From an uncultured Gemmatimonadales bacterium (GTDB lineage Bacteria > Gemmatimonadota > Gemmatimonadetes > Longimicrobiales > RSA9), in the NCBI GenBank assembly GCA_963741945.1, contig CAVUKA010000005.1, positions 256,001 through 320,000 on the forward strand: a stretch of 64,000 nucleotides of DNA, in the 5' to 3' direction. Below, one piece after another: positions 48,017-64,000 of the stretch (position 1 is the first letter of the stretch; the number at the start of each line of letters is the position of its first letter). The notes under the pieces were generated by a model. That model did not search any database. It was not told the DNA's origin and worked only from the letters and a program-made list of their open reading frames with translations. The position numbers and the translations under genes were made by a program.

Positions 48017-48802
48017 ATGCTCGACCTGCACAACCACATCATTCCGGGCGTGGACGACGGCGCCCGCTCTCTGGACGAGGCGTACGCAGCCCTCGTCGCC
48101 ATGCGCGACGACGGCGTGACCAGCGTCCTGTGCACGCCTCACTTCGACGCGTCCTTCACTCGCCAGCGCGACGCATGCACCGCGCGGCTCGAGCAGATCG
48201 ACCAGGGGTGGGACGCGCTCGTGGCGATGGCCCGCGAGCGGCTGCCGGACCTCGAGCTGCGGCGAGGCGTCGAGCTTCGCCTCGATACGCCCAACCCGGA
48301 TCTCGACGATCCCCGCCTCCGCCTGGACGGCGGAAGCGCGGTCCTGGTCGAGTTCCACGGCTTCTTCGTGCCGCCCGGCGCCGCCGACGCGCTGCGCGAT
48401 CTCGCCACCAGCGGCTTCGTGCCACTCCTCGCCCACCCCGAGCGCTACCGCGCCATGACGCCCGCTCTCGCCCGGAGCTTTCACGACGCCGGCGCCTTCC
48501 TCCAGGTCAATGCAGGCTCCTTGAGCGGCCGCTACGGCAGCGCCGCCCGGGACGCGGCATGGCAGCTCCTGGAGCAGAGCCTGGTCTCGCTGGTGGCGAG
48601 CGACTATCACGCCCGCGGCGCCACGTACCTCCCCCAGGCCCGTGCCCGCCTGGAGCGACACCTCGGCGAGGAGGCCACGCGGCACCTGATGGAAGAGAAC
48701 CCGCGACGGCTGGTGAGCGGGGAAATGCCGCTGCTGGTCGTGGGCCGGGGGAGCGCGCGAGGGCTGCTGGGGCGGTTGATGGAGTGGCTGCCCGGCCGGT
48801 AG
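48017..48802 (+). CDS. CpsB/CapC-type PHP-family tyrosine-protein phosphatase
   Basis: DLHNHIIPGVDDG, TPH, AHPERY, ASDYH. Confidence 0.92.
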   Translation: MLDLHNHIIPGVDDGARSLDEAYAALVAMRDDGVTSVLCTPHFDASFTRQRDACTARLEQIDQGWDALVAMARERLPDLELRRGVELRLDTPNPDLDDPRLRLDGGSAVLVEFHGFFVPPGAADALRDLATSGFVPLLAHPERYRAMTPALARSFHDAGAFLQVNAGSLSGRYGSAARDAAWQLLEQSLVSLVASDYHARGATYLPQARARLERHLGEEATRHLMEENPRRLVSGEMPLLVVGRGSARGLLGRLMEWLPGR

Positions 48803-48909
48803 CACTCCGCCGCCCCGCTGCTCACCCTCGCATCGGGCGCCGGCGGCGCCCGGCTGGCGCCATCGACGTCGCGCGGGTACAATGGGGTCTTCCCATTCCC
48901 CCGAACATA

Positions 48910-49305
48910 ATGCCCATGGACCGCGCATCCGCGAACCGCTACCGCATCCTCCTCGCCGACGATGATGACAGCGTCCGCGAGGTGCTCCGGCGCTCTCTCG
49001 CGGGCGCGGGCTTCGAAGTGGAAGCCGTCGCGGACGGGGATGCCGCCCGGGAGGCCTATCTCCGCCGCTGCCCGGACGTCCTCCTGGCCGATCTCGTGAT
49101 GCCCGGCGTCAACGGGCAGGAGCTGGCCGCGGGCTGCCGCGAGCGCTGCGGCGAGACCATCCTCGTGTTCATGAGCGGCTACACCGAGGAAGAGCTCCAG
49201 CGGCTGGAGATCCGCCAGGTGGTCTTCCTCCCCAAGCCGATCTCCCCCTTCGATCTGGTCCAGACCATCCAGCGGCTGCTGCGCGGCCGCAAACCCGCCG
49301 TCTGA
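48910..49305 (+). CDS. Single-domain response regulator
   Basis: ILLADDD, ADLVMPG, MSGY, PKP. Confidence 0.9.
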   Translation: MPMDRASANRYRILLADDDDSVREVLRRSLAGAGFEVEAVADGDAAREAYLRRCPDVLLADLVMPGVNGQELAAGCRERCGETILVFMSGYTEEELQRLEIRQVVFLPKPISPFDLVQTIQRLLRGRKPAV

Positions 49306-49398
49306 CACTCCCCGATCCACTGGTCATCACCAGAGCCGGGCATTACGTTGCTGCCTGACCGACCATCGTCGTAGCTCCTAACTCGAAGCCGCATACCC

Positions 49399-52338
49399 AT
49401 GCCACCTGCACGAGGTGCGAAGGCGCTGCTCTTCATCGTTGCCGCGCTCGTCCCCGCTGTTCTGTCCGCACAGAGCCCCACCACCGCCGCCCTCGAAGGG
49501 ACGGTGGCCGGCCCGGACGGCTCGCCGCTTTCCGACGTGGGTCTCACGCTCCGTCAGGTCGGCGCGAACACCGCGGTGCTCGGTCAAACGGGCATCGAGG
49601 GCGAGTTCGAGTTCCCGCTCCTCCCGCCGGGTCGATACGAGCTCCTGGTGGAGCAGCTCGGGTATCGGCCGGTCCTGGTGGGCCCGATCCCGCTGGGGCT
49701 CGATCATCGCGTGGGCATCGCCGTGGAGCTCAGGCCGGCCGAGGGTGTGGTGGAGGAGCCCGACCGGGTTCCCTTCATCGGCGCCGCGAGCGCGGGCTCG
49801 CGGGCGGGTCGGAGCGTCGCCTTCAGCGAATGGGAGCGGCGGGCGATCCCGTACGTGGACGGTGAAGCGGGCGAGCTGATGATGACGAGCACCGTGGGCG
49901 AGCCACCGCTGACGGTGGAAGGGCTGCCTGCGACACTGGGTGCGCTCACGATCGATGGCGTCGCGTTCCAGCCGCTCGAGCTGCCGGCACTGGCGGACCT
50001 GGGATCGATCCTCGTGCCCATCCTCGGTCTGGCCCAGGCCGAGCTGTTCGCCGGGCGACCCGATGTGGAATGGCCGAGCGCCGCGGGCGGCATACTGGCG
50101 ACGATGCTCAACACCGGCGGCGACCGTTCCTCCGGTCGGCTGGAAGGCGCCCTGGGGATGGATCCCCTGGCGATCGACGAGGTGACCTCCTCGTACACCA
50201 CGTGGCGCGGCGGAGCGAGCTTCGGGGGAGCGCTGGCCGGGGACAGCGCTCACGCCTGGTTCGGCGTTCAGGCCCTGCAGCGCGAGCAGCCGGTGTCCCG
50301 CGTCCCGGGATGGGCGGCCGACCTCCAGCTCGGGACGGGCGACGAGTTCGGATGGGTCGCAACGCCGATCAAGAAGCAGCACATCGAAGCGGCGGGGACG
50401 TTCGACTGGTCCCTCCCCCGCGGGCGCTACCTGCGCGTGAGCGCCGTTGTGGCCGACGCCCAGGATGACGTACCGGCCGTCGCCCCCGAAGGCGGTCGGA
50501 TCCCCGTCGCACGGGATGCCCGCGACATCATGACCGCCGCCACCATGCTCGCGCCGCTCTCCGATGAAGTGTCCGCGCAGTTCCATCTCGGATTCGGGAA
50601 CAGCACGCGGACGTACGAGGCGGCTGGCGGTGACACGACACCGTTCGGCGACGCGGCCGTGGTCGTCGCTTCCGTCCCGCTCCAGCTTTCCGGGAGTCAG
50701 GCGCTGCCCGCGGACCTGAAGCGGAGCGAGATCAACGGACAGGGGACCGTGTACTTTCAGTCCGGGGCCCACCGAGTGAAGCTGGGCGCCGGGTTCGCCG
50801 CCCGGTGGCACGACCGCACCGAGCTGTACGGCCGGACCGGGAGCTACCTGTTCGCGACCCCGGCCGATCTCAGGAACCGGCTCGGCGCGTTCCAGGGTAC
50901 GGCCGGTCCCGTTCCGGCCGCCACGTTCACCACGCAGGACTTCTTCGGCTACGCACAGGACACGTGGCAGCTCGCGCCGGGGTTCGATTTCACGACGGGC
51001 GCGCGCGTCGACATCGAGACGCTGCCGGCTTCCGGGCTGCTCAGGAACCGGCGCTGGTTCGAGCTGACCGGCATCGACAACACCGACATCTCCTCGGCCG
51101 CGACCACGTTCGGCGCGGTCGCCGCACTCAACTGGGACATCGAGAACCGCCACGAGTGGTTCATCCGGGGTGGCCTCACGCTCGTCGGCGGGGATGTCTC
51201 CCCGGCGCTCCTCGGCGAGGCGCTCACCTCGAACGGGCGCATATCGGCCCTCGGCGCGGTCGGGAACCTCGCGGACACCTCCCCCCGGGACCTCGGGCCC
51301 ATGCTCACCGTCCTTTCGGGGGACATCCAGCCGCCGCTCACCACGCGCGGGAGCATCGGCCTGAGTCGCGCCCTCGGCGCCTCCGCCGCCCTTCACCTCA
51401 GCGGTGTGCTGCGCCGGACGGAGAACCTGCCGCGGCGCCGCGACCTCAATCTCCTCGCCACCGCACCATACGCCGATCAGTACGACCGTCCGGTGTTCGG
51501 CAGCCTGGTGCGCCAGGGCAGCCTGCTCGCGGCCGAGCCGGGCAGCAACCGCAGGTTCTCGGAGTTCGATCGCGTCTTCGCCGTGCACACGGACGGCATC
51601 TCCACGTACTGGGGCCTCACGGCCGCCCTGGAGAAGAACGCCGGTGACCGGGTGAAGCTCACGGCTTCCTTCACGCATTCCGCAACCCGTGACGAATGGC
51701 CGGGTGCGGGCATGCTCCCCGGTGTGCAGGAGCTGCCGCCCTTCCCGGGCGTCGACGGCCTGGACGACTGGCAGGACGGGATCTCCGACCTGGACGCGCC
51801 CAATCGCGCCATGGCCGCGGTGGACGTGCGCCTCCCCGTGATCACCGGTGTTCACTTTGGCGCGCTGTACCGGATGGCTTCGGGCCTCCCGTTCACCCCC
51901 GGCTTCGGCAGCGCCGTGGACGCCAACGGCGATGGCGTGATCGGGAACGACCCCGCGTACGTCGATGACGCCCTTCCCGGAATGGACGACCTTCTCACAC
52001 GCTGGCCCTGCCTGCGCGAAAACGCCGGGCGCTTCGCCGAGCGGAACTCCTGCCGGCTCCCGACCCGCCGCTCCATCGATGCCTGGGTCACCGCCGCGCT
52101 GCCGGTCATGGAAGGCGTCCGCACCGAGCTGCGCCTGGAGGGGATCGATCTCTCACCACGAGGGCTGGGGATCTACGATACGGCGCTGTACGTCCTCGAT
52201 CCGAACGGATCGCTGACCGTCGACCCCGTGTCCGGGCGCGTCCACGTTCCGCTGGCCGTCAACTCGCACTTCCGGCAGGGTCAGCTCACCGACACGCAGC
52301 TGTCCCGGCTCCGCATTTCCCTGAGATTGTACTTCTGA
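49399..52338 (+). CDS. TonB-dependent receptor-like protein with an N-terminal carboxypeptidase-regulatory-like domain (Oar-like)
   Basis: Signal peptide; LPPGRYELLVEQLGY; YAQDTWQL...TGARVD; SGLPFTP; DANGDG; C-terminal LRLYF. Confidence 0.82.
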   Translation: MPPARGAKALLFIVAALVPAVLSAQSPTTAALEGTVAGPDGSPLSDVGLTLRQVGANTAVLGQTGIEGEFEFPLLPPGRYELLVEQLGYRPVLVGPIPLGLDHRVGIAVELRPAEGVVEEPDRVPFIGAASAGSRAGRSVAFSEWERRAIPYVDGEAGELMMTSTVGEPPLTVEGLPATLGALTIDGVAFQPLELPALADLGSILVPILGLAQAELFAGRPDVEWPSAAGGILATMLNTGGDRSSGRLEGALGMDPLAIDEVTSSYTTWRGGASFGGALAGDSAHAWFGVQALQREQPVSRVPGWAADLQLGTGDEFGWVATPIKKQHIEAAGTFDWSLPRGRYLRVSAVVADAQDDVPAVAPEGGRIPVARDARDIMTAATMLAPLSDEVSAQFHLGFGNSTRTYEAAGGDTTPFGDAAVVVASVPLQLSGSQALPADLKRSEINGQGTVYFQSGAHRVKLGAGFAARWHDRTELYGRTGSYLFATPADLRNRLGAFQGTAGPVPAATFTTQDFFGYAQDTWQLAPGFDFTTGARVDIETLPASGLLRNRRWFELTGIDNTDISSAATTFGAVAALNWDIENRHEWFIRGGLTLVGGDVSPALLGEALTSNGRISALGAVGNLADTSPRDLGPMLTVLSGDIQPPLTTRGSIGLSRALGASAALHLSGVLRRTENLPRRRDLNLLATAPYADQYDRPVFGSLVRQGSLLAAEPGSNRRFSEFDRVFAVHTDGISTYWGLTAALEKNAGDRVKLTASFTHSATRDEWPGAGMLPGVQELPPFPGVDGLDDWQDGISDLDAPNRAMAAVDVRLPVITGVHFGALYRMASGLPFTPGFGSAVDANGDGVIGNDPAYVDDALPGMDDLLTRWPCLRENAGRFAERNSCRLPTRRSIDAWVTAALPVMEGVRTELRLEGIDLSPRGLGIYDTALYVLDPNGSLTVDPVSGRVHVPLAVNSHFRQGQLTDTQLSRLRISLRLYF

Positions 52339-53930
52339 TGAGAACCACTCTGCTCCTTCTGATGACCCTCTCGCTGGCCGCACTCGCCGCCGCCTGCGGC
52401 CAGTCCCGTTCCGACTTCGTCGGGATCGACGCGAAGGGGACCGCCGTGGGGCTCGTGTGGGTGGACCGCAACGGGAATGGGACGCTGGACGGCAGTGACG
52501 GTCCGGTCCCGAACGTGACGGTGGAGCTCGCGCAGCGTGAGAACGGGAGGACCGAGGCCACCCGGTCGTCGGGCCCGAGCGGCGAGGTGATCTTCGATGG
52601 CATTCCCGTGGGCAACTACGTGGCCCGTGTGGCGGCGGCCGGAATCCCGGACACGCTGCGCCTCCTCCGCGTGGACTCCGCGAACGTGACCGTGACGTAC
52701 GGCGACACCGCCGCCTTCCTCGTCAGCCTCACGTTCCCCGCGCTTCCCATTGACTCGGCACGGCACCAGCCGCCGGAGACACGCGTCTTCATCGAGGGGC
52801 TGGCGCTCACCGGCTGGCGAACGTTCGCCGACTCCACCGTGCACGTGCGGGACTCCACGGGTGCGATCCGGGCCGTGCGCGTGCCGCCGGTGGCGGTAGC
52901 TACGGGCGACAGCGTCCGGCTGCTCGGCCGCATCGGGATCGACGCGGGCGCCCCCGTCCTCAAGGACGTGCAGGCCACGATCGTGCGCACCGCCGTCCGC
53001 ACCCCCGAAGCCATTCCGGTGAACGCCAGGACGGCCGCCGGCGCCGACAATGGCCGCCTCGATGCCGAGCTCGTCCACCTGGACAGCGTCGTGGTGCGCG
53101 ACACGGCCACGGACAACAGGGGGAACATGACCCTGACCGTCAACGACGGGTCGGGGAGCGTGAACGTGGTGCTGGACGCGGACGTGGGATTCCGCGTCTT
53201 CTTCCCGTCCTCCGTCCTCGGGTCCATCATGGACATCTCCGGCGTGCTCGTGCCCAGGGCGGCCGGCGAATGGGTGGTGAAGCCGCGCACGGCGGCCGAC
53301 GTGGTGGTCGGCCCGCTCTCGTATCCGCTCCTCACCATTGCCGCGGCCCGCGACCGGCCGGTGGGCACCCGCCTCCAGGTCGAAGGCACCGCGCTGAACA
53401 CCTGGTCGACCTTCGGCGACGCCATTCTCCACGTGCGCGACGCGACCGGCGCGATCCGTGCCTTCCAGGTGCCGGCCACCACCATTGCCAGCGGCGACAG
53501 TGTGCGCCTGGTCGGGACCGTCGACGTCGCCTACGGACAGCCCGTGCTGACGAACGTCCAGACCACGCTCCTCCACGCCGGGATCCAGCCCGCGCAGCCG
53601 AGCGACGTGGTCTCCACTCTCATGGCATCTACGGCGCGCTCCGGACAGCTGGATGCCGGGCTGGTCAGAGTGATGGGAGCCACCATCCAGGATACCGCCC
53701 GCACGGCGGGCGGGGACCGCGTCTTCATCGTGAACGACGGATCGGGGCCGCTCAGTGTGGTCCTCGATGCGCAGGTGCCGTTCTATCTCAGCTGGCCCGC
53801 GGATGGCAGCGGTCGGCCGGTGATCATCGGCACCCGGATCTCCGCCACCGGCCTCCTCGTTCCGGCGCCCCTCCCCGCGGGGAGCTGGATCCTGAAGCCA
53901 CGCGGAACTGCCGACATCACGATCCAGTAA
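52338..53930 (+). CDS. Lipoprotein with an SdrD-B-like domain and two 196-aa repeats of OB-fold-like domains
   Basis: AAAC lipobox; VDRNGNGTLD; repeats start at 52743 and 53331 (HVRDxTGAIR, GDSVRL, VNDGSG, KPR); TGATG overlap with the receptor gene. Confidence 0.8.
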   Translation: MRTTLLLLMTLSLAALAAACGQSRSDFVGIDAKGTAVGLVWVDRNGNGTLDGSDGPVPNVTVELAQRENGRTEATRSSGPSGEVIFDGIPVGNYVARVAAAGIPDTLRLLRVDSANVTVTYGDTAAFLVSLTFPALPIDSARHQPPETRVFIEGLALTGWRTFADSTVHVRDSTGAIRAVRVPPVAVATGDSVRLLGRIGIDAGAPVLKDVQATIVRTAVRTPEAIPVNARTAAGADNGRLDAELVHLDSVVVRDTATDNRGNMTLTVNDGSGSVNVVLDADVGFRVFFPSSVLGSIMDISGVLVPRAAGEWVVKPRTAADVVVGPLSYPLLTIAAARDRPVGTRLQVEGTALNTWSTFGDAILHVRDATGAIRAFQVPATTIASGDSVRLVGTVDVAYGQPVLTNVQTTLLHAGIQPAQPSDVVSTLMASTARSGQLDAGLVRVMGATIQDTARTAGGDRVFIVNDGSGPLSVVLDAQVPFYLSWPADGSGRPVIIGTRISATGLLVPAPLPAGSWILKPRGTADITIQ

Positions 53931-53976
53931 CCGCGCTCCAGTTCGTGCCACGGGGCCGGCGTGTTCCCTCGCGGGG

Positions 53977-55152
53977 TCACGCCGGCCCCGTCAGCACACC
54001 GGCGATCCGCTCCATCACGTCCAGGTCCACCCAGCGGTGCACCGGCACCGTGAACAGCTCCCTCGCCAGTGCGTCGGCGCCCGGCGTCCGCCGGGCCGTA
54101 CCGATCACGCCCGCGACTTCCGGCAGCGACGACAGCGCCCGCGGATAGCTCGGCAGCACCCCCACGCTCCGCCCGCCCCGAACCACCTCCTCCGCCGCCA
54201 CTCCCGGCTTGCGGACCGGAAGCCGAAGGTATCCGGGCACACCACCGCCGGGCGGCTGGGACGGGAGCCACAGCCCCGGAACCGCGGTCAGGCGGGCGCG
54301 GAGCACGGCCGCATTCCGGCGGCGCGCGGCCGCCTCCGCCGCCGAGGCCGCATCCGCCGCCATGACCGCCGCTGCCGCCGCTCGCCCCATCGCCCGCGCC
54401 GGGGACGGAGGCGCGAACCGGGTCTCCCCCAGCCCGAGCCACGGCAGCCGCGACGGGAGCCCGTACAGCACGGGACGCCCGAGCACCCCCTGCGCCGCCA
54501 GTCGCGCCAGCAGGACCACGGCGCCCCCGCGACGAGGCTGCGGGAGCGGGAGTGCTCTGGTCGCCGCACCGAACCCGTCCCGCGCCAGGAGCGCCCCGCC
54601 CCCGCCTCCCGTCCACCCCTTCCCGCGGCCGAAGCTCAGCACGCTAAGTGTGCCCAGGCTCCCGAGCGGCCGCCCACCCAGCGAGCCCCCGTGCCCCTGG
54701 GCGGCGTCCTCGATCAACACGGCGCCGCTCGCTTCCACCCGCGAGCGAAGATCCGGGATGTCCACGGGGATCCCGAACGCGTGGACCACCACCACCGCGG
54801 CCACGCCCCGGGCGAGCGCAGCGGTCAGCGACTCCGGCTCCGGCGCCAGCGTCTCCGGGGAGATGTCGTAGAACTCGAGACGCGCCCGGGCCGCCAGCCC
54901 GGCGGTGGCCACGTCGTAGCAGCTGTACGCGGGCAGCGCCACGCCGTTCTTCCCCGTTTCCCGGATGGCCAGCGAGAGGGCCACCTGGAGCGCGTGCGTG
55001 CCGGAGTCGCACAACATCACGGCGTCCGCCGCGAACCGCTCGAGAAGCAGCGCCTCGAGTTCGGCGCGCGGGCTGCCACGCCCCAGCGCAGCAGCGGCCG
55101 CGGCGGCGAGGGCGCCAGCGGGAACAGGCGAACTCACAGGAGGTAGCATCAT
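53977..55152 (-). CDS. DegT/DnrJ/EryC1/StrS family aminotransferase
   Basis: SGTHAL, IEDAAQG, SFGRGK, terminal TVPVH. Confidence 0.88.
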   Translation of the reverse strand: MMLPPVSSPVPAGALAAAAAAALGRGSPRAELEALLLERFAADAVMLCDSGTHALQVALSLAIRETGKNGVALPAYSCYDVATAGLAARARLEFYDISPETLAPEPESLTAALARGVAAVVVVHAFGIPVDIPDLRSRVEASGAVLIEDAAQGHGGSLGGRPLGSLGTLSVLSFGRGKGWTGGGGGALLARDGFGAATRALPLPQPRRGGAVVLLARLAAQGVLGRPVLYGLPSRLPWLGLGETRFAPPSPARAMGRAAAAAVMAADAASAAEAAARRRNAAVLRARLTAVPGLWLPSQPPGGGVPGYLRLPVRKPGVAAEEVVRGGRSVGVLPSYPRALSSLPEVAGVIGTARRTPGADALARELFTVPVHRWVDLDVMERIAGVLTGPA

Positions 55153-55215: not shown

Positions 55216-56040
55216 ATGACCGATCACGCGCCGGGCGACGCGACCCCCCTCACCGTGCTCGCCGTGCTCGAGCACGACCCCGCGGGCGAAATCGTCCACC
55301 GCCTCCTCGTCGAGGAAGGGCTCCGGGTGGTGCGGCAACCCGTCTCGCACCTCGCCGACGCATGGAGCGCGGCACCCGGTGCCCACGCCGTCCTCCTGGA
55401 CGACAGAGCCGACCCCGCCGAGCTCCGGCAGGCGCTCGACCGCGGCGTCGTGGACAGCACCGCCCCCGTGTTCGTCGTCACCCGGCGACTGCCTGAGCCC
55501 GGCCGGTACACGGCGTGGCTCGAAGCGGGCGCGTGGGACATCGTCAAGATCCCCCTCGAATCCACCGCCCTGATCCTCCGCCTCCGCAACATCCTGCGCG
55601 CCCGCCGCACGCCGGAGCCCGTCCACGGCTGGCCCACCGTCCGCTACTCCCGCGACACCCTCGAGCGCGTGGCCGATGAGACCCTCGCCCTCGCACGCCG
55701 CCGACACCACCCCGTCCACTGCCTCGCGCTCCGACTCGAAGGCTGCAATCCTGCCGCGGGCGACCCCGCCGCACTCCTCGAGCGCCTCGCCGAAGTCTCC
55801 CGCTCCCTGCTCCGCGCCTCCGATGTCATCGGCCTCGGTGACCACGGCCCGCTTTTCATTCTCCTCCCCCAGGCCGACGGCGAGGCCGCTGCCGCTTCCG
55901 CGGCCCGCATCCGCTCGGCCCTCGCCAGCCGCCTCCGCGACTGGGGCGTCTCGGGCACCCTCGTGGCTGCCTCCGTCGGCTCCAGCCACGTCGCCACCGG
56001 CGAAGATCTCCTCGATGCCGCCCTCCGCGCCCTCGGCTGA
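55216..56040 (+). CDS. Receiver-like domain + degenerate GGDEF protein
   Basis: WLEAGAWDIVKIP...LRLRN; LLRASDVIGLGDHGPLFILLP. Confidence 0.7.
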   Translation: MTDHAPGDATPLTVLAVLEHDPAGEIVHRLLVEEGLRVVRQPVSHLADAWSAAPGAHAVLLDDRADPAELRQALDRGVVDSTAPVFVVTRRLPEPGRYTAWLEAGAWDIVKIPLESTALILRLRNILRARRTPEPVHGWPTVRYSRDTLERVADETLALARRRHHPVHCLALRLEGCNPAAGDPAALLERLAEVSRSLLRASDVIGLGDHGPLFILLPQADGEAAAASAARIRSALASRLRDWGVSGTLVAASVGSSHVATGEDLLDAALRALG

Positions 56041-56100: not shown

Positions 56101-56230
56101 TGTGGTGCGGCCGCAACACGATTGCGGTATCGCTGCGATACTTGACGGATACGCCCGCCGGCTCCAACACTGCCTGTGGCAACCCGCACAAGCATTACGG
56201 GGGACGTGCGCCGATAGCACGGAACGTGCT
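56101..56230 (+). promoter_or_regulatory. Putative enhancer sites and sigma-54-like promoter for the regulator operon
   Basis: TGTGG-N8-CAACA (56101-56118), degenerate second site (56123-56140), TAGCACGGAACGTGCT (56215-56230; AG in place of GG). Confidence 0.45.
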
Positions 56231-56312: not shown

Positions 56313-57176
56313 TTGGCCAGAGCACCGATCGTACTCATCGTCAGCGAGCACGAGTGGGCATCGCGCTCACTCGACACCGTGCTCGGCCACCGCGGCTATG
56401 CCGTGCTCCGGGCGTATACCGGTGAGCTCGCGCTGGAGCGGGCCTCGGCGTCCAACCCGGACGCGGTCTTCATCGAGCACAATCTCCCGGACATGAGCGG
56501 CGCGGACCTGTGCCGCGAGCTGTTGGCGTCGGACGCCGTTTCGCCGGCCGCGCCGTTCATCGTCATGACCTCGGGGCCGATCACGCCCGAAGAGAGGATC
56601 GACGTGCTGCGGGCCGGGGCGTGGGAGGTGCTGGCCCTGCCGGTGGACGCGGAGGAGCTGGTGCTCCGGCTCGAGCGCTATGTGCGCGCGAAGCTGGAAG
56701 CGGACCGGGCGCAGGACCGTACGCTGCTGGACCCCGACACGGGGCTGTACACCCGCGCCGGCGTGCTTCAGCGCGCGCGGGAGCTGGCCGCGGCCGCCGC
56801 CCGTTACGGGCGCCCGATCGCCTGCATCGTGGTGGAGATGGCGGCATCGGAAGGCGAGCCGCGCGGAGACAGGGAGATCGAGGCCGATATCGCCACGCTC
56901 CTCCGCAGCTCGACCCGGCGCTCGGACATCCTGGGCCAGCTCGGACCCCACCAGTACGCGGTCCTGACGCCGGACACCCCGGAGCAGGGCGCCCGCGTCG
57001 CGGCCGAGCGACTCAGGCGCTCCACCGGCCCCCCGGCCGGTGCCGGCGCCCCCGGGACGGCCAGGACCGCCGTCTTCTCCATCTCGGATCTCGACATCGG
57101 AGGGCTCGATCCCGAGCAGTTCGTGCGCCGGGCCGCGGAGGCGCTCGGCGCCGATCCGGACACGCTGCTGAACTGA
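56313..57176 (+). CDS. Pseudo-receiver + degenerate GGDEF protein
   Basis: TTG start; FIEHNLPD (Glu at the phospho-Asp position); DPDTGLYT; RRSDILGQLGPHQY. Confidence 0.8.
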   Translation: MARAPIVLIVSEHEWASRSLDTVLGHRGYAVLRAYTGELALERASASNPDAVFIEHNLPDMSGADLCRELLASDAVSPAAPFIVMTSGPITPEERIDVLRAGAWEVLALPVDAEELVLRLERYVRAKLEADRAQDRTLLDPDTGLYTRAGVLQRARELAAAAARYGRPIACIVVEMAASEGEPRGDREIEADIATLLRSSTRRSDILGQLGPHQYAVLTPDTPEQGARVAAERLRRSTGPPAGAGAPGTARTAVFSISDLDIGGLDPEQFVRRAAEALGADPDTLLN

Positions 57177-57427
57177 CAGGCCGGCGGGGCCGGCCCCGTC
57201 GCGCCGGGCACGGACCGATTCCCCTTTCGCTCCCGCGTCCGCGGGAGCGGCATTGACTGGCGCCCTCGATCGCCTCTCCTGTTGATTTTCGCGGGCGGCG
57301 ATGGTATCTCTCGTGTCCGCCATCCTGCGGGAGCGGCGCTCGCCCGGGAGCGGCCCTCGCCACCGCATCGTGTGGCGCCGCTGCGCAGCGGACCGTCCCG
57401 GTGGCCCACGCAACTCGCCCCAGCTTT

Positions 57428-58915
57428 ATGCCGACACCCGCTTCAGCTTCCGGCTTCGCACCACTCACCCACGAGGATCGTGATTCCATTCGCATCCTCG
57501 TGGTGGACGACGAGGCCACGCTCCGGGACACGTGCGTCAACGTGTTGCGGATGCAGGGCTACTCCGTCTCGGCCGAGGGGCGTGGGGAGGACGCGCTGGA
57601 GACGATCCGGCGCCATGATTTCGACATCATGCTCATCGACCTCTACATGACCGGCGTGCCGGGCATCGAGCTGCTGAAAGCCGCGCTCAAGCGCCGCGCT
57701 GCCACGGTCGTGATCATGATGACCGGGAACCCCAGTGTGGAGTCCAACCTCGAGGTCCTGGGCGCCGGCGCCTGGGACTACCTGCCCAAGCCGTTCTCCG
57801 CCACTCACGTGGAAGTGCTCATCGGCCGCGCCGCGCACGCCGTTCGCGCGCACAAAGCCGACGGGGCAGCGGGTGGGGGAGGCACGGAGGCGGACGGGGA
57901 CAGCGACAGCAAGGTCATCGGGTCGTCGGCGGCCATCCGGTCCGTCCTGGAGCTCGCGCGCAAGGTGGCGCAGAGCAACGCCTCCGTGTTCATCACCGGC
58001 GAGAGCGGGAGCGGGAAGGAGCTCATCGCCAGCTACATCCATCGGCTGAGTCGCCGCGCGTCCAGGCCGCTCGTCGCCGTCAACTGCGCGGCGCTCCCCG
58101 AGCCGCTCCTGGAGTCGGAGATGTTCGGGCACGTGAAGGGATCCTTCACCGGCGCCGTGCGCGACAAGGAAGGGCTGTTCGAGATCGCCGACGGTGGGAC
58201 CCTCTTCCTCGACGAGCTCCCGGAAATGTCGGTGGCGATCCAGGCCAAGCTCCTGCGCGTGATCCAGGACGGCGTGCTCCGGCGCGTCGGCAGCACGTCG
58301 GCGGACGCCCACGTGGACGTGCGCATCATCGCCGCCACGAACCGCGACCCCAGGCAGGCGGTCCGCGACGGCGCGCTGCGCTCGGACCTCTACTATCGGC
58401 TGCGGGTGGTGCCGATCCATGTCCCGCCGCTCCGTGAGCGAGCGGAGGACATCCCCGAGCTCGCCGCCCATTTTCTCCTGGCATACTGGACGCGAGACTA
58501 CCCGCGCGAGGAGCCGCCCCGGTTCACGGATGGCGCCACGCAGGCGCTCCTGGAGTACCCCTGGCCTGGGAACGTGCGGGAGCTCCAGAACGTGGTCGAG
58601 CATACGGTGGTGCTGGCGGAGCCCGGTCAGGCCATCGAGGCATCCACGATCCCGTTCATGCATGACGCCGCCCCCGAAACCGGCGACGGCAATGCTCTTG
58701 CATCCATCCTCGAGAGCCTGCACGGCCGCTCGTACCACGAGGCGCGCGAGGCTCTGCTGTCGGAGTTCGAGCGCTCGTACTTGAGCTCACTGGTCACGCG
58801 GGCTGATGGCAACATGTCCAAGGCCGCGCGCATGGCGGGCGTCGACCGCACCACGCTGTACCGGCTGATCGACAAGCACGACCTTCAACGGGACAGCATT
58901 CTCCGAGAGAAGTAA
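57428..58915 (+). CDS. Sigma-54-dependent response regulator (NtrC family)
   Basis: Receiver; GESGSGKE, ESEMFGH, GSFTGA, LFLDE, DLYYRL, WPGNVREL; Fis-type HTH (GVDRTTLYRL). Confidence 0.96.
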   Translation: MPTPASASGFAPLTHEDRDSIRILVVDDEATLRDTCVNVLRMQGYSVSAEGRGEDALETIRRHDFDIMLIDLYMTGVPGIELLKAALKRRAATVVIMMTGNPSVESNLEVLGAGAWDYLPKPFSATHVEVLIGRAAHAVRAHKADGAAGGGGTEADGDSDSKVIGSSAAIRSVLELARKVAQSNASVFITGESGSGKELIASYIHRLSRRASRPLVAVNCAALPEPLLESEMFGHVKGSFTGAVRDKEGLFEIADGGTLFLDELPEMSVAIQAKLLRVIQDGVLRRVGSTSADAHVDVRIIAATNRDPRQAVRDGALRSDLYYRLRVVPIHVPPLRERAEDIPELAAHFLLAYWTRDYPREEPPRFTDGATQALLEYPWPGNVRELQNVVEHTVVLAEPGQAIEASTIPFMHDAAPETGDGNALASILESLHGRSYHEAREALLSEFERSYLSSLVTRADGNMSKAARMAGVDRTTLYRLIDKHDLQRDSILREK

Positions 58916-60051
58916 TGGACAGCAGCGGAGTCTCCATGGCAGACGCTCGCCGCCACGCGGGCCCGGCTCAGCGGACCGAATACCCGGCCGGGAGCAGTGA
59001 TTCCGTCCGGGCCGAGTCGCATGCCCTCCGCGCCGCCGCGGACGCCGTCCTCGCCGACACCGACGCCTGGCGCCGCCAGGCGCTCGGCCGCGAGGAGGCC
59101 GCCGCAGTCATGGACGAGATCGTCGGCTTCGTTCTCGAAGTCCCCGCGGCCGAACAGCAGGCAGGCCGCCGGTCGGGTGGCGAAGTCAGCCTGGCCCTCC
59201 GCCTCCAGGAGCTGCTCTGCCACCGCATCCTCAGCGGGGAGCGCACCCTACCGGCCGAGCAGCAGCTCGAGCTGCTCAGGAAGCTCGACGGCTACCGCGC
59301 CGCCGTCTACCCGGACGACCGCCAGAACCTGGCGTTCCTCCTCACCGGCGCCAACGCCCTCGAGCTCGTGGTGGAGCTGGCTCACGACCTCAGGTCGCCT
59401 CTGACCTCGATCATGTTCCTCGCCGAAACCCTCCGGAAAGGACAGAGCGGGGAGATCAACGACCTCCAGCGCCAGCAGCTCGGGATCGTTTACAGCGCCG
59501 CCCTCAGCATGGTCGGTGTCGCCAATGACGTCATGGACCTGGCCACAAGCCGATCGGACGGGGCGTGGGAGCGCGCGCAGGATGAGGAGTTCTCCATCAA
59601 GGACCTCGTGGAAGGCGTCCGCGACGTCGTCGCACCCATGCTGGAGCAGAAACGCCTCGGCTTCTCCTTCTTCACCCCGCGCAACGACACCCGCCTCGGA
59701 CGACCGGTCCCGCTCACACGCGTCCTCGTCAACCTGGTCTCCAACGCCATCAAGTTCACGGAAACCGGCCGCGTCGAGATCGTGGTGGGGGAGGTGGGCG
59801 GCGAGCGCGACAACCGCGTCGAGTTCTCCGTCCGCGATACCGGCCCCGGGATGAGCAGAGAGCGGCTCGACGCCGTCCACGACCTCTTCACTCGCAGCCG
59901 CAGCAGCACCGGCTACCACTTCTCCGACACCGGCCTCGGCCTCTCCATCTGTCACCGCATGGTCACCCTCCTGGGCGGCCAGCTGCACGTCGACAGCCGG
60001 CCCGGAGAGGGCACTCGCTTCCATTTCGTCATCCCGCTGCCCCGAGGGTAG
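58915..60051 (+). CDS. Cytoplasmic sensor histidine kinase
   Basis: AHDLRSPL, NLVSNAIKFT, DTGPG, GLGL; no TM helix; TAATG overlap with the activator gene. Confidence 0.92.
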   Translation: MDSSGVSMADARRHAGPAQRTEYPAGSSDSVRAESHALRAAADAVLADTDAWRRQALGREEAAAVMDEIVGFVLEVPAAEQQAGRRSGGEVSLALRLQELLCHRILSGERTLPAEQQLELLRKLDGYRAAVYPDDRQNLAFLLTGANALELVVELAHDLRSPLTSIMFLAETLRKGQSGEINDLQRQQLGIVYSAALSMVGVANDVMDLATSRSDGAWERAQDEEFSIKDLVEGVRDVVAPMLEQKRLGFSFFTPRNDTRLGRPVPLTRVLVNLVSNAIKFTETGRVEIVVGEVGGERDNRVEFSVRDTGPGMSRERLDAVHDLFTRSRSSTGYHFSDTGLGLSICHRMVTLLGGQLHVDSRPGEGTRFHFVIPLPRG

Positions 60052-60122
60052 GCGGCACCGCGACTCCAGACGCGGCGAGGAGCTTCAGCCGCGGCCGTCA
60101 CGACAGGAGCTTCCGCAACGAC

Positions 60123-60162
60123 AAGGGCGGCCGTACCGAGTCCTTCGGTACGGCCGCCCTTT
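60123..60162. terminator. Bidirectional intrinsic terminator
   Basis: 17-bp stem AAGGGCGGCCGTACCGA / TCGGTACGGCCGCCCTT between convergent genes. Confidence 0.85.
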
Positions 60163-60208
60163 CTGCTCCGAGGAAGAGCGTTCTACATCACTGGATCAGG
60201 TCCCCCCG

Positions 60209-60883
60209 TCAGTCTTCCCGGCGGCGACGACGGTACCCCACCACTCCGAGCCCCAGCAGCCCCGTTCCCATCAGCAGCAGCGTGGCGGGCTCGGGCACCA
60301 CGTTCGGATCCTGACAGTCGGCCAGGCTGGTGTAGCCATCCGGCAGCAGGATGGAGCCATCGGACGTGAGCTTCACCGAGCAGCGACCATAGCTCTGGAT
60401 GTGCACACGGCCTTCCGTCAGCTGCTGCAGTTCTGCCAGCGTCAGGTCGCTCGCGAACGTGAAGCTCACGGAACCCCCCGGCGCCAGTCCGTCATTCACA
60501 CCATTGGTCGTGCACGCCCCCGCCAGCGGCTTGCTCGAGACACCGCCACCGGAGAGGTCATTGCAGTTCCCGTCACCCGGATCAAGAGCCCACCCACTCA
60601 GGACGGGCCCGTTGAACGAGAGGCCGGAAAAATCGTCGGCGTACTGGCTCGCGCCGATCAGCCCCGCCGCTGTGATCACACCCGGGTCCAACGCCGTCCC
60701 GGTGGTATACGTGACCGTGAACTTGAAGAGGTCACCATCCTGTTCAAGATTGAACCCGATGCACGTGTCCAACGAACCCCCGCCGCATACGGGATTGGCC
60801 ATCCATTCAGCCGACAGACCCGCGGGGGCCAGCAAGGCCACGCCCACCAGCATGGACCATGGGGAGAGATTTCGAAGTTTCAT
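60209..60883 (-). CDS. PEP-CTERM sorting domain protein
   Basis: Signal peptide; VPEPATLLLMGTGLLGLGVVGYRRRRRED; GGAAGGG RBS. Confidence 0.93.
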   Translation of the reverse strand: MKLRNLSPWSMLVGVALLAPAGLSAEWMANPVCGGGSLDTCIGFNLEQDGDLFKFTVTYTTGTALDPGVITAAGLIGASQYADDFSGLSFNGPVLSGWALDPGDGNCNDLSGGGVSSKPLAGACTTNGVNDGLAPGGSVSFTFASDLTLAELQQLTEGRVHIQSYGRCSVKLTSDGSILLPDGYTSLADCQDPNVVPEPATLLLMGTGLLGLGVVGYRRRRRED

Positions 60884-61431
60884 GGGCCCTTCCTCGGAAA
60901 TAGGGTGCGGATCAATACGATCCCGGAAACCAGATAGCCGAGGCCGAAGCCGACGGCCATCACGGACGTCCGGATGATGGCGCGGACCAGAAGTGTGCCC
61001 TGCGGTCCGTTCGCGGAACGCAGCGCCAGCGGCACGTTGAGCAGGAACAGCACGTAGGCCGCCGCGACCAGGAGCGCTGCGGCCAGGAGCGTGATGCCCA
61101 CCACGCTGCGCCCGGCGCGACCGCCGCGCGCCAGCGCCCACGCCAGCAGTGCCGCAAACCCGATCGTGGGAAGCGGCAGGCTGCTCACCATGGACGCCAC
61201 GGTCCCGAACTCCCACTCCGGGGAGCCGAACGCGGGGGGGTAGGCGTACAGCGCCACGTCCACCACGCCCACCACCGCCAGCAGGAGGCCGAGCCCGGGG
61301 AGCACGCGCCACGCCGCGTCCATGGACGGGCGCAGCGGAGCCGGCCCTTCGCTCACCAGCCGTGCGGCTAGCAGCGGAGCTTCCGGATCGCGTCTCTGCT
61401 CTCGTGCCACGGTCCCCTGCAGTTCTGGCAT
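60880..61431 (-). CDS. 4-TM membrane protein, HpsJ-like
   Basis: YPPAFGSPEWEFGTVASMVSSLPLPTIG pattern; ATGA overlap with the PEP-CTERM gene; start uncertain (61431 or 61323). Confidence 0.65.
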   Translation of the reverse strand: MPELQGTVAREQRRDPEAPLLAARLVSEGPAPLRPSMDAAWRVLPGLGLLLAVVGVVDVALYAYPPAFGSPEWEFGTVASMVSSLPLPTIGFAALLAWALARGGRAGRSVVGITLLAAALLVAAAYVLFLLNVPLALRSANGPQGTLLVRAIIRTSVMAVGFGLGYLVSGIVLIRTLFPRKGP

Positions 61432-61494
61432 GTTCTGAACACGGTGAATGGCGGGACCCCGCTCAACGGGGGTCCGTCGTAAGCGTGCAGTCGT

Positions 61495-61646
61495 CGCACC
61501 TTTCACGCCATCGATGCGCTCGAGCCGTCAAACGTCAAGCCACGTTGTGCCACAACCGATTGCGGACTGATCGAACGCGTCGGGCAGGCCATCGCCAGGA
61601 GATTTGTGATGCATCAGACCAACACCATCGGTGTACCCGTGCACCA
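61495..61646 (-). promoter_or_regulatory. Putative sigma-54 promoter with IHF-like site and tandem enhancer sites
   Basis: Minus strand TGGCGTGAAAGGTGCG (61495-61510; GG-N10-GC); CAACCGATTG near 61553; 18-bp sites at 61607-61624 and 61629-61646. Confidence 0.6.
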
Positions 61647-61689
61647 CCCGGCCCCTGGCCACGGTCTCCGGCCCCACGCCATCCGCCCC

Positions 61690-62295
61690 TCATTGGGAGG
61701 CCAGCAGAGCCCGGTCCAGCTCCCGGACACACCGCTCGATCCGGGCGTAGACCTCATCGAACACACCCGACTCCGCGCCCCACGGATCGCGGATGCCTCG
61801 ACGCCGGATCGCTGTCGGATCCAGGTCCCCGAGCACGAGGATGAAGGCCGGGGGCTGCCGCATGAGCTGCCGAGCGTGCCGTCGTTGCCGGACGTCCATG
61901 ACCACGACGAGCGGCGCAGCCACGGTGGGCCCCTGGTCGAGCAGCCGGGACCGGTGTCCCGAGAGGTCGACGCCCAGCCGCGCGGCCGCGGCGCGGGCTT
62001 CGGGAGGCGAGGGTCGCCCGGGGCCGATGAATCCAGCCGAAGCCACCTCGACGAGCTGACCGCGCATCGCCATTTCACGGCGGAGCACGGCCTCGGCGAA
62101 CGGGCTCCGGCAGATGTTGCCGTGACAGAGGAAGACGACGGAGGTGTCCGGCGGCAGGGCGCGGAGGTGGCGGAGGGCCGCATTTCGCCGCAGCGGATGG
62201 AGCGCGGCATCGAGGCGGTCCAGGAAGGTGCGGGCCGCGCGTCGCAGCGCGCGCACCGGCCGAGCCCCGCGATCTCCCTCGCTCTGATCTCCCAT
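61690..62295 (-). CDS. Low-molecular-weight protein-tyrosine phosphatase (Wzb-like)
   Basis: FLCHGNICRSP, SAG, HRSR, IRDPWG. Confidence 0.9.
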   Translation of the reverse strand: MGDQSEGDRGARPVRALRRAARTFLDRLDAALHPLRRNAALRHLRALPPDTSVVFLCHGNICRSPFAEAVLRREMAMRGQLVEVASAGFIGPGRPSPPEARAAAARLGVDLSGHRSRLLDQGPTVAAPLVVVMDVRQRRHARQLMRQPPAFILVLGDLDPTAIRRRGIRDPWGAESGVFDEVYARIERCVRELDRALLASQ

Positions 62296-62321
62296 GCGCG
62301 CGGTCGGGCTGCTCCGCCGTC

Positions 62322-62858
62322 TCAGCGACTCGCGGACGACGTTCCGGGGGGGTTACCCCCGAGTACCAGACCGGCGCCGCCTTCCTCCTTCGACCGGCGG
62401 GTCTGCCGGATCGAGCGCCAGAGCGCCGCGGCCAGAAGGAGCAGGATGGCCCCTGTGACCAGCACGATCGCCAGCGACCGGGCCGAGTTCATCTCGTAGA
62501 GCTGCTGCAGCTCCGGCTTCACGCCGCGCCGGACCTGCAACGCGTCCAGCATGAAGAGCGGCCCCACGATGACAAGGGCCAGCCCCGCAACTCCGCTCAC
62601 CACGGAATAGAACCGGCGCCAGCCTGGCCGATCGTGCAGCGCGGCAAGCGCAGCCCCCAGGAAAATTCCCAGCAGCGGGATGGCCGTGCCATCCGCCATC
62701 AACCCCAGCAGGCGCGTCCTTCGGAACGCCCCTTCCGTCCCCGGCACCAGCTGCGTCAGCACCAGCCCCGACAGCGGGAACAGGATCAGCGCCCAGGCCA
62801 CGAGCTGTCCGGGCCAGAACAGGGATCGCAGCGGCGTCGCGTTTCTCAGGTGTGCCAT
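62322..62858 (-). CDS. 4-TM membrane protein, probable paralog of 60880-61431 (HpsJ-like)
   Basis: GAGGAG RBS; four TM helices; IPLLG and LFMLD align by eye with LPTIG and LFLLN of the paralog. Confidence 0.65.
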   Translation of the reverse strand: MAHLRNATPLRSLFWPGQLVAWALILFPLSGLVLTQLVPGTEGAFRRTRLLGLMADGTAIPLLGIFLGAALAALHDRPGWRRFYSVVSGVAGLALVIVGPLFMLDALQVRRGVKPELQQLYEMNSARSLAIVLVTGAILLLLAAALWRSIRQTRRSKEEGGAGLVLGGNPPGTSSASR

Positions 62859-62977
62859 GCTGAACTCTTCGAGGCAGGATGAGGTGCGCCGGATCGCTCC
62901 ATCACGCGGCGGCGCCGCTCCCCGGCCGGGAAGCGGCGCCGCAGTCCGCACGCGATCACGAACGGTCCGTCAGCTCG

Positions 62978-63529
62978 TCAGACGCTGTCCTTGCGACGAC
63001 GTCGGGCCAGGCCGAACACGCCCAAGAGACCGGTGCCGAGCAGGAGAAGCGTGGCCGGCTCCGGCACCGTAGTCGGGGGTGGCGAGCCGCCCTCCCGCAT
63101 CTTGATCTCCAGGTTGCACCCCTGCCCCGTCGTGCACACCTCGTCCGTCACGGCCGTGGCCCCGATGTAGTAGGTCGTGCTCGCCGCCAGGTCGGGTGAA
63201 CCGAACCACTGGTTCGAATTCGGATCCGGGACGAAATAGTTGTAGTGGTACGCGTACGTTGCCGGGGTCGATTCCGGGTCGAAGTTGGTCGGATCCGTGA
63301 AGATCCACACGTCGAACTGGCCGGTCGCGGTCCCGGCCGCGTAGAGATCGTAGATGCCGGCCGGATCCACCGTGAACTGGTACAGGTAGTCGCTGTAGAC
63401 GGTGGGGCCGTTGCCCACGGTGGTGCAGCCCGGGCACTGGAAATGGAAGTTCTGCGCCTCCACGGCCGTGGGTGGCAGCAGTGCGAGCGCGGCCACCGCG
63501 CCCACGATCATGGCAATTCTCTTCTTCAT
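62978..63529 (-). CDS. PEP-CTERM sorting domain protein
   Basis: MKKRIAMIVG signal peptide; VPEPATLLLLGTGLLGVFGLARRRRK; AGGAGG RBS. Confidence 0.94.
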   Translation of the reverse strand: MKKRIAMIVGAVAALALLPPTAVEAQNFHFQCPGCTTVGNGPTVYSDYLYQFTVDPAGIYDLYAAGTATGQFDVWIFTDPTNFDPESTPATYAYHYNYFVPDPNSNQWFGSPDLAASTTYYIGATAVTDEVCTTGQGCNLEIKMREGGSPPPTTVPEPATLLLLGTGLLGVFGLARRRRKDSV

Positions 63530-63635
63530 GCGGCCCTCCTGGGGGGAACAACGGGTGATCGCGTACATCGCCACGGAAACGCCCGGTCCCGTTCATCAGG
63601 TGCCGGACTGTCCGTATGCGACGGTATTTCGGAGT

Positions 63636-63812
63636 CGCAAGATCGGAACCGACCATCGCAATCCGGAACGCGACCACCCGGTAATACCTGCTAACGCAAG
63701 TTATTACAACGATTTAGGGGCCATGACAGCATCCGGATGTCCGACCTCCGCATCCTCCCGATCGGCCCCATGAGTGTGGAGTGGCTACCACAGGTGTCGT
63801 GGACAGCCGCCA
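63636..63812 (-). promoter_or_regulatory. Putative sigma-54 promoter with IHF-like sites and tandem enhancer sites
   Basis: Minus strand CGGTTCCGATCTTGCG (63636-63651); CAAGTTATTA and CAACGATTTA at about 63697-63716; TGTGG-N8-CCACA (63775-63792) and TGTCG-N8-CGCCA (63795-63812). Confidence 0.55.
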
Positions 63813-64000
63813 TGAAGACAGGCCCGGCCCGGCCGCCAGGGCGGCGGTGGTGGCGGACGGCCGCATTTCCCCGTAGCGTGATGGCGGCCCGGGGGTCAAA
63901 CCGCCCTGGCCGCCGTGCTGGTCCGAACCGTGCCGGGACGAAGAATCCGTGAGCGACGATCCCCTGACTCGCCGGTGGAGCGTTCGAAGCTTTTGATCCA

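Follow-up and report, generated by a model that had tools for sequence, protein, structure and literature searches.

A conserved kinase, NtrC-type activator and degenerate GGDEF protein as the candidate control module of an exopolysaccharide/exosortase locus in Gemmatimonadota

The closest described counterpart of the system reported here is PrsK/PrsR/PrsT, which, in the part of PMC1569441 that was available, is confined to Proteobacteria and is accompanied by a 17-nt motif ending in TTTACA with a spacer of 62.8 +/- 10.6 nt; the same part states that more PEP-CTERM regulators and motifs await discovery. In the accessible portion of PMC9850573 a PEP-CTERM gene is RpoN-dependent and prsK adjoins a sugar transferase gene, and in that of PMC11406998 one PEP-CTERM gene of Gemmatimonas is light-induced. 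The present work deals with a stretch of 64,000 nucleotides from an uncultured Gemmatimonadales bacterium (the window; positions 256001-320000 of contig C5 of genome G000, which has 4.09 Mb and 70% GC), the end of which encodes a soluble histidine kinase, an NtrC-type sigma-54 activator and a receiver protein with a degenerate GGDEF domain, termed RG2. With a probability of roughly 0.68, the block forms the regulatory end of an exopolysaccharide (EPS)/exosortase locus of 54 kb, in which the kinase would act through the activator on sigma-54 promoters preceded by a palindromic box, driving export, PEP-CTERM and RG2 genes, with RG2 adding a feedback by cyclic di-GMP (c-di-GMP).

Little genetics has been done in Gemmatimonadota, for which the analysis supplies candidate regulator genes, a binding box, promoter positions and a list of targets, each of them testable. 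It predicts that a matrix programme is set off by a signal inside the cytoplasm, with c-di-GMP tuning it, instead of depending on a membrane sensor; the surprise is limited because all parts are familiar domain types. A description of the module or of the box was not found among the papers listed (few of them from subscription journals, and no supplements) on Gemmatimonadota exosortase, PEP-CTERM or EPS/sigma-54/c-di-GMP, nor among those on Gemmatimonadota enhancer-binding protein/Wzc/regulon or on degenerate GGDEF with kinase and EPS. The available parts of PMC3162934 and 10.1101/2024.12.02.626408 do not cover the module.

Kinase, activator and receiver-GGDEF protein

Genes were called with our own hexamer model and then checked against Pfam and NCBIfam. 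The activator gene (57401..58915, plus strand; start uncertain) encodes an NtrC-type protein, as an earlier reading of the letters and open reading frames (the sequence-only reading) had stated, with the receiver Asp, a GAFTGA-type loop (here GSFTGA), Walker A and B, the R-finger and a Fis-type helix-turn-helix (HTH) domain. Among 86 aligned orthologues the receiver Asp, Thr and Lys, Walker A/B and the R-finger were invariant (86/86), the loop was GAFTGA or GSFTGA, and most positions of the HTH recognition helix were kept in 84-85 of 86; the HTH differs from those of the paralogues. A quick tree of 30 sampled orthologues and 15 paralogues placed the orthologues on one separate branch (SH-aLRT 100).

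The kinase gene (58915..60051, plus strand) overlaps the stop codon of the activator gene and encodes a HisKA/HATPase protein with intact H, N, G1 and G2 boxes behind a helical N-domain of approximately 125 aa. The protein is soluble as proposed, having no transmembrane segment (maximum hydropathy 1.44); none was seen either in the 29 aligned kinase rows that were scored. The predicted fold of the N-domain (pLDDT 84) contains no conserved His or Cys of the kind that binds heme or bilin. Structural comparison (VIA) gave Z scores of 7-9.4 and root mean square deviations of 2.9-3.9 over 100-108 residues, a weak match for a helical domain, mostly with globin-type folds such as phycobiliproteins (Z 8-9.4), a stressosome protein (8.1), the DosC globin (7.4) and RsbR-N (7.1). 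No Foldseek match at E<=0.001, no significant PDB profile match and, in 58 aligned members, no Pfam match including PF14361 were obtained. The Atlas score for the N-domain alone was 0.79, towards RsbRD_N kinases, and is a lead only. All 66 proteins found with an N-domain profile carry HisKA and 65 also HATPase, and those that are named come from Gemmatimonadota. These data are suggestive only of a globin-like (RsbR-N-like) N-domain.

RG2 (56313..57176, plus strand; start codon inferred) combines an atypical receiver with a GGDEF domain that had been called catalytically dead, which was borne out: the GGDEF loop and the metal-binding Asp are lost, and GG[DE]EF occurs in 0 of 70 orthologues. R202, D205 and R233 of RG2 align with R359, D362 and R390 of PleD, which form the primary I-site according to the accessible part of PMC7288161. 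This triad was invariant (70/70), in contrast to the freely drifting catalytic loop and metal Asp, and in further homologues RxSD was kept in 120/120 and GG[DE]EF in 0/120. G000 encodes seven GG[DE]EF proteins and four HD-GYP-motif proteins, and the full triad is present in only one of its seven intact cyclases. The invariant I-site supports a c-di-GMP input to the module, and RG2 itself probably binds c-di-GMP at this site. A predicted complex of RG2 with the dimer of the kinase N-domain and DHp and with c-di-GMP reached a score of 0.26 against a mark of 0.32. The receiver of RG2 has lost the conserved Lys; its phospho-Asp is kept in 56 of 70 orthologues and is Glu in G000. A divergent paralogue, RG1 (55216..56040, plus strand), has an eroded receiver and a dead GGDEF domain with RxSD kept; it was found only in G001 and L054 among the loci examined and is lineage-restricted. 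Elsewhere in the window (21686-22582, plus strand) lies a diguanylate cyclase anchored in the membrane, in which GGEEF is intact and RxxD is missing (PF00990, 126 bits), a possible source of c-di-GMP that has no link to the locus.

Gene order was compared in 21 stretches of order-level relatives and in a public set of the best 80 of 581 kinase loci, in which the kinase relatives were labelled Gemmatimonadota or plain 'bacterium'. Because many of these loci are short (only 23 reach 20 kb), the counts are lower bounds. The recurrent plan was wza< RG2> wzc< activator> kinase>, with the priming sugar transferase gene (sugT), an exosortase gene and epsI on either side. The activator was present in 76 of the 80 loci, sugT in 52, RG2 in 50, wzc in 45, wza in 27, the exosortase in 18 and epsI in 15; the low-molecular-weight protein-tyrosine phosphatase (LMW-PTP) of the window was counted in two, RG1 and PEP-CTERM in one each, and CpsB, DegT, the TonB-type receptor and the lipoprotein in none. 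Beyond the genus, the conserved gene order that the sequence-only reading had asked for was found only for RG2, activator and kinase with wzc, wza and sugT. G001 and G007 also have DegT, receptor and lipoprotein next to the kinase. A split cassette is seen in G000 and G001, where wzc/sugT/exosortase stand at a distance of 35-40 kb.

In a co-occurrence census of 201 phylum genomes (tallies including the unpublished G183), the kinase was present in 102 and RG2 in 102, both together in 97, neither in 94 and one only in 10. An exosortase occurred in 57 genomes, 45 of them kinase-positive, and was not seen in 57 of the 102 kinase-positive genomes, so the module is linked to EPS more than to the exosortase: it would be a general EPS regulator first, for which the exosortase is optional and which would cover PEP-CTERM genes where they are present. 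The different wiring that had been suggested for PEP-CTERM/EPS control is supported in part: the soluble kinase and the dead GGDEF domain stood, and the corrections concern the extent of the conserved unit and its link to EPS. Exosortase-positive, kinase-negative genomes did not serve as a clean control, since three of 11 examined (G101, G117 and G161) have a more divergent activator/kinase nearby, and the kinase count of 102/201 is therefore a lower bound.

Further observations concern the module in other genomes. A 528-aa protein, the start of which looks NYN-like on inspection, lies behind the kinase in 34 of the 80 loci (e.g. L075:4500-6086); nothing in G000 matches it. Some genomes possess 3-6 RG2 paralogues as well as duplicated kinases (G071, G146, G182, G077; L062, L092, L131). 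In L053 (G015:C7:343572-346280) activator and kinase are in several pieces, perhaps owing to assembly frameshifts. Family f11 (G043:C51, G052:C52, G058:C37; three of three genomes) has long PrsK-like kinases, which at 164-184 bits remain under the cut-off, and neither the soluble kinase nor RG2 was matched in it; a PrsK-type system may therefore persist there.

A palindromic box ahead of sigma-54-like sites

An 18-bp palindrome, TGTtGC-N6-GCaACA (the box), was obtained de novo by expectation maximization (EM) approximately 100 nt upstream of sigma-54-like sites in four of five gene classes. Log-likelihood ratios for wzc, sugT, RG2 and the activator were 174-321, compared with 51-60 in shuffles; the box was not recovered de novo for wza. 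A plain GG-N10-GC scan missed most sugT and RG2 sites, and matrix and EM methods were used instead, the sigma-54 matrix being derived from 31 sites of G000 that do not belong to the locus. The sigma-54 score upstream of wzc was 8.35 against 4.83 in dinucleotide shuffles (top of 60 shuffle means, 6.3), and the scores upstream of sugT, RG2, wza and the activator likewise exceeded all 60 shuffle means. In 117 of 126 pairs the box preceded the promoter site, with median spacers of 101-105 nt; the spacers showed only a weak helical phasing, which was not consistent (best periods 11.8-12.4). Leave-class-out recovery was 36/44 for wzc, 25/46 for sugT, 39/59 for RG2, 14/26 for wza and 56/68 for the activator (54-82%), against a background of 28/1247 (2.2%).

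When G000 was scanned with a box model trained without G000 and G001, boxes before RG2, HpsJ1-PEP1, PEP2/deacetylase and sugT ranked 2, 4, 7 and 8 of 35 intergenic boxes. The locus makes up 1.7% of the intergenic DNA, yet held four of the top eight boxes (binomial P 5.6e-6); for all 35 boxes, of which the same number lay in the locus, P was 0.003. The box ahead of RG2 (TGTGGTGCGGCCGCAACA, 56101..56118; score 18.0), a predicted activator site, is followed 96 nt further on by the sigma-54-like -24/-12 site TAGCACGGAACGTGCT (56215..56230, plus strand), in which AG replaces GG; both are kept in G001. Ahead of HpsJ1-PEP1 the box TGATGCATCAGACCAACA (61607..61624) stands 96 nt upstream of the site TGGCGTGAAAGGTGCG (61495..61510, minus strand), which has two homologous copies in G001. 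The third box, TGTGGAGTGGCTACCACA (63775..63792), lies between the divergent PEP2 and deacetylase genes, and the site before PEP2-HpsJ2-LMW-PTP, CGGTTCCGATCTTGCG (63636..63651, minus strand), has a modest score. Strong intergenic boxes outside the EPS locus were observed at C3:414854, C4:62227, C3:358123, C1:777174 and C2:10609; they may mark additional genes of the regulon or be bound by a different activator.

PEP-CTERM genes, none of which had been used for training, were investigated by a coordinate-based procedure in 18 genomes. After three of 66 genes with less than 1000 nt upstream had been dropped, a sense-strand box with promoter was found before 35 of 63 (33/59 without G000), compared with 6 antisense, 7 downstream sense, 1 downstream antisense and a background of 12/1162. 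An earlier procedure with a strict pattern had given 25/47, with 19 of 66 loci dropped (18 by the pattern, one for short upstream DNA). G000 also encodes an RpoN that scores over its cut-off, and shares with the PrsK/PrsR type the combination of RpoN and a sigma-54 -24/-12 site before PEP-CTERM genes. Distant wzc paralogues in four kinase-negative genomes showed no box (0/12 non-orthologous loci), which is a weak control as many are mid-operon; the same query matched no wzc in five other kinase-negative genomes.

The exopolysaccharide/exosortase locus

The PEP-CTERM/exosortase EPS locus is real. The sequence-only reading had predicted that the exosortase, Wzc and glycosyltransferases would lie outside the window, and they were located 0-38 kb past its end on the same contig; neither exosortase nor Wzc was found inside it. 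The cluster past the window reaches approximately C5:358500 and also contains EpsI, Wza and SugT. A deacetylase gene is followed by FemAB, several glycosyltransferases, sulfotransferases, an O-antigen ligase/Wzy-like gene and an ABC exporter, and further downstream by a third PEP-CTERM gene, the boxed sugT, EpsI, the exosortase, Wzc, Wza and a CAAX protease (TIGR03008; 198.2 against a cut-off of 81.05). The exosortase, a single gene, scored 160.5 with TIGR02602 (cut-off 105.55) and has the motifs EACSG, NGIRV and MHYTEG of the EpsH-type Cys-Arg-His arrangement; it remained below the subtype cut-offs for XrtA (TIGR03109, 150.9 vs 208), XrtB (99.6 vs 275) and XrtD (177.8 vs 400). The XrtA-associated models for the deacetylase (328.5, cut-off 276.2) and FemAB (319.5, cut-off 260.35) passed although the exosortase failed the XrtA model. 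EpsI scored 99.9 with TIGR02914 (cut-off 42.8), and Wzc has Walker motifs and a Tyr cluster. Four PEP-CTERM genes of G000 exceed the TIGR02595 cut-off, three of them in the locus.

Several features of the cluster past the window were observed in addition. At C5:340120-343778 (L002:4120-7778) an IS110 transposase precedes an island of 58% GC containing two open reading frames, by eye a polysaccharide pyruvyl transferase-like and a GT2-like gene, probably a swapped-in EPS module. At least three sulfotransferases, a CoA-ligase-like gene and an ATP-grasp gene at C5:331278-347992 suggest a sulfated, acylated polymer. An 819-aa Big_2-repeat lipoprotein (C5:325705-328164; L001:9708-12164, minus strand) has a weak polysaccharide-lyase-like match at its C terminus and a strong sigma-54-like site, without a box, ahead of its gene.

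Scans with Pfam, NCBIfam and PEP-CTERM profiles confirmed all genes that had been listed for the block, at their positions. It begins with a CpsB/CapC PHP-type tyrosine phosphatase (48017..48802, plus strand; PF19567, 141.6 bits), a lineage-specific neighbour that likely acts on Wzc. A stand-alone receiver (48910..49305, plus strand; PF00072, 62.2 bits), which the sequence-only reading had missed, precedes two accessory genes, an Oar/TonB-like outer-membrane barrel with a carboxypeptidase-regulatory-like N-domain (49399..52338, plus strand; PF25183, PF13620) and a lipoprotein with SdrD-B-like and OB-fold domains (52338..53930, plus strand; PF17210, PF01336). The DegT/DnrJ sugar aminotransferase gene of the EPS pathway (53977..55152, minus strand; PF01041, 102.6 bits) adjoins deacetylase/FemAB or wzc in other genomes. 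Beyond the kinase gene, a perfect 17-bp hairpin (60123..60161), likely a terminator, lies between the convergent kinase and PEP1 genes. PEP1 (60209..60883, minus strand; TIGR02595, 32.1 bits against a cut-off of 16) and PEP2 (62978..63529, minus strand; 33.3 bits) are PEP-CTERM proteins. An intact CHGNICRS motif is present in the Wzb-like LMW-PTP (61690..62295, minus strand; PF01451, 82.9 bits), and the two phosphatases, CpsB and LMW-PTP, presumably cycle Wzc, as their families would suggest. The deacetylase gene of the XrtA system, also absent from the earlier list, starts inside the window (63975..64000, plus strand).

Each PEP-CTERM gene of the block was confirmed to have an HpsJ-like neighbour, HpsJ1 (60880..61323, minus strand), which overlaps the PEP1 start, and HpsJ2 (62322..62858, minus strand). 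A simple hydropathy scan resolved three helices in each, not the four that had been reported. With the family models NF038305, NF050013 and NF050019 neither exceeded the cut-off (best 38.2 vs 60, obtained for HpsJ1 with NF038305; 29.4 vs 140), and HpsJ2 had no NCBIfam match; HpsJ2 is homologous to two downstream paralogues at C5:349441 and C5:351911 (E 1e-9 to 1e-10). Of 66 PEP-CTERM tails, 23 have an HpsJ-like gene at a distance of up to 1.5 kb, and HpsJ-like genes are present in six of 18 exosortase-bearing kinase loci, which suggests that their products are accessories of the exosortase pathway. Rfam gave no match in 46000-64000. Just outside the block, a 350-aa secreted-looking protein rich in Pro, Arg and Ser (45106-46158, plus strand) has no Pfam match.

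Proposed circuit and relation to known systems

The circuit, which builds on gene content, synteny, the state of the catalytic motifs and the enrichment of box and promoter, would run as follows. A cytoplasmic signal would act via the predicted globin-like N-domain of the kinase, and phosphotransfer from its His157 to the receiver Asp of the activator would enable the latter to bind the box and to open the sigma-54 promoters of sugT, wzc, wza, RG2 and the HpsJ/PEP-CTERM operons. RG2, itself controlled by the box, would bind c-di-GMP at its I-site and feed back; its preferred target, tentatively, is the kinase-activator relay, and the Wzc export machinery is a somewhat weaker candidate. By analogy with published floc/biofilm systems, the exosortase would process the PEP-CTERM proteins, which would form a cell coat with EPS. 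To judge from the sequences, the module likely switches on this slime coat in place of the regulators of Proteobacteria.

A number of observations weigh against this circuit. The box is tied to the activator by synteny and HTH conservation only, G000 encodes approximately 16 other sigma-54 activators, and 31 of the 35 intergenic boxes genome-wide lie outside the locus. Many promoter sites, including that of RG2, have no first G of the -24 GG, and the scoring matrix had been started from a preset consensus. The wzc gene of G000 has a strong promoter site (C5:354502) and no box, the activator of G000 has no box of its own, and the pair of box and promoter is absent before 28 of 63 PEP-CTERM genes, including PEP3 and PEP4 of G000; PEP3 lies 162 nt behind the boxed sugT and may share its transcript. 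Leave-class-out recovery is not fully independent because divergent genes share intergenic DNA, and related genomes are non-independent samples. The globin-like call is weak, with Z 7-9.4 for a helical domain and neither a Foldseek nor a Pfam match, and the label 'pseudo-receiver' is uncertain for RG2 because the phospho-Asp is kept in 56/70. RxxD is, moreover, common in GGDEF domains generally, according to the available part of PMC7288161.

Two other explanations concern the role of RG2. The transcription arm might be right and RG2 an independent, post-translational receptor of c-di-GMP in the manner of PopA or PelD, which gates either Wzc/Wza or the priming transferase, or serves as a protease adaptor. 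RG2 is mostly convergent with wzc and divergent from wza/sugT, the box precedes it as it does EPS genes, and some genomes have 3-6 RG2 copies against 1-3 kinases, all of which would fit. This explanation is nevertheless rather unlikely, as cassettes without wzc keep RG2 by activator and kinase (sugT<RG2>activator>kinase, e.g. in L057, L070 and L104), the window does so too with wzc approximately 41 kb away, and RG2 and kinase occur together in 97 of the 107 genomes having either. It is more unlikely still that RG2 does not read c-di-GMP at all, its triad being a structural or contact surface and the protein a phospho-sink or scaffold. I-site residues are widely conserved in GGDEF domains (available part of PMC7288161), which favours such a role, as do the receiver Asp kept in 56/70 orthologues and the 16 commonest unlabelled neighbour clusters, in which no cyclase or phosphodiesterase was recognized (judged from sequences, with no profile scan). 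The invariance of the triad in 70/70 orthologues whose catalytic loop and metal Asp drift, and its retention by only one of seven active-looking cyclases of G000, speak for c-di-GMP binding instead.

The box might also be read by another factor, i.e. a different sigma-54 activator or a Fis-like global regulator, with the trio merely resident in the EPS cluster or regulating part of it. TGT-Nn-ACA is a common shape of Fis-type HTH sites, which counts in favour of another reader together with the other activators encoded and the boxes outside the locus. Such a reader is improbable, since 56 of 68 loci have boxes flanking the gene of the activator and the recognition helix is nearly invariant phylum-wide, unlike in paralogues; the lack of boxes at distant wzc paralogues (0/12) points the same way as a weak control. 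Least probable of all is a diverged PrsK/PrsR pair that lost its membrane sensor. Logic and targets are the same, and a terminal ACA is common to the box and motif 1 of Haft, but the pair does not score as ordinary PrsK/PrsR, which agrees with the sequence-only reading. The activator reached 353.7 with TIGR02915 (PrsR; cut-off 502.6), only 13th in the genome, where the best score was 430.5; the kinase matched TIGR02916 (PrsK) with 54.3 bits (cut-off 300; genome best 101.5) over the last 143 model positions only (537-679). No PrsK exceeded the TIGR02916 cut-off in 61 phylum genomes, and the best score for PrsT (TIGR02917) in G000 was 69.6 against 312.2. The box also differs from motif 1 in length (18 vs 17 nt), sequence (GCaACA vs TTTACA) and spacer (approximately 100 vs 62.8 nt). 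Beyond the circuit preferred here, one may speculate, with some doubt, that the module is a matrix master switch of Gemmatimonadota's own, with a kinase that has a globin-like sensor and is gated by c-di-GMP-loaded RG2, one activator and one box. If true, the switch would have replaced PrsK/PrsR by convergence, would sense its signal inside the cell and would include a feedback loop through c-di-GMP, and one box would govern both polysaccharide export and dispersed PEP-CTERM genes.

Compared with known systems, the kinase resembles the soluble RsbRD_N-HisKA-HATPase kinases (PF14361; Atlas; Myxococcota, Planctomycetota and Pseudomonadota) in size and domain plan and perhaps in a predicted non-heme globin-like N-domain, and differs from them in having no Pfam match there. 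RG2 has the receiver-GGDEF architecture of the Caulobacter PleD D2-GGDEF part with the equivalents of R359, D362 and R390 intact; unlike PleD, it has a single receiver and a dead catalytic loop, and lies inside a putative sigma-54 regulon. PopA of Caulobacter is an I-site receptor of c-di-GMP. Pseudomonas FleQ is an NtrC-like activator of EPS genes that itself binds c-di-GMP; its LFR/RN ligand residues around Walker A were not seen in the activator alignment (n=86). PelD of Pseudomonas offers an I-site receptor for comparison with RG2 in the available part of PMC7288161. EpsI/Nla24 of Myxococcus xanthus is likewise an NtrC-like, c-di-GMP-linked activator for EPS transcription (accessible part of PMC4877007), and by its description it is set apart in that EpsI/Nla24 binds c-di-GMP, whereas here RG2 is the candidate receptor. 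In SgmT/DigR of the same species, as far as described in the available part of PMC3509222, a kinase controls the extracellular matrix and a GGDEF domain is the c-di-GMP receptor; this domain is fused to a GAF-sensor hybrid kinase with DigR as partner, whereas the window has a separate receiver-GGDEF protein and a sigma-54 activator as output.

The closest likeness is that to PrsK/PrsR, judged from the available parts of PMC1569441 and PMC9850573: a tandem of kinase and NtrC-type activator in an EPS/exosortase locus, a palindromic enhancer with a -24/-12 site before PEP-CTERM genes, and a sugar transferase gene adjoining the pair. Unlike in PrsK/PrsR/PrsT, the kinase is soluble with another N-domain, the three models fail and PrsT is absent; a dead-GGDEF protein travels with the pair, wzc, wza and sugT are likewise preceded by the box, and many genomes without an exosortase have the module. 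The 18-nt box with its median spacer of 101-105 nt likewise departs from PrsR motif 1 as described in the source. Regulation of the locus thus appears as a new variant, in which the logic of PrsK/PrsR is carried by different proteins and a different box.

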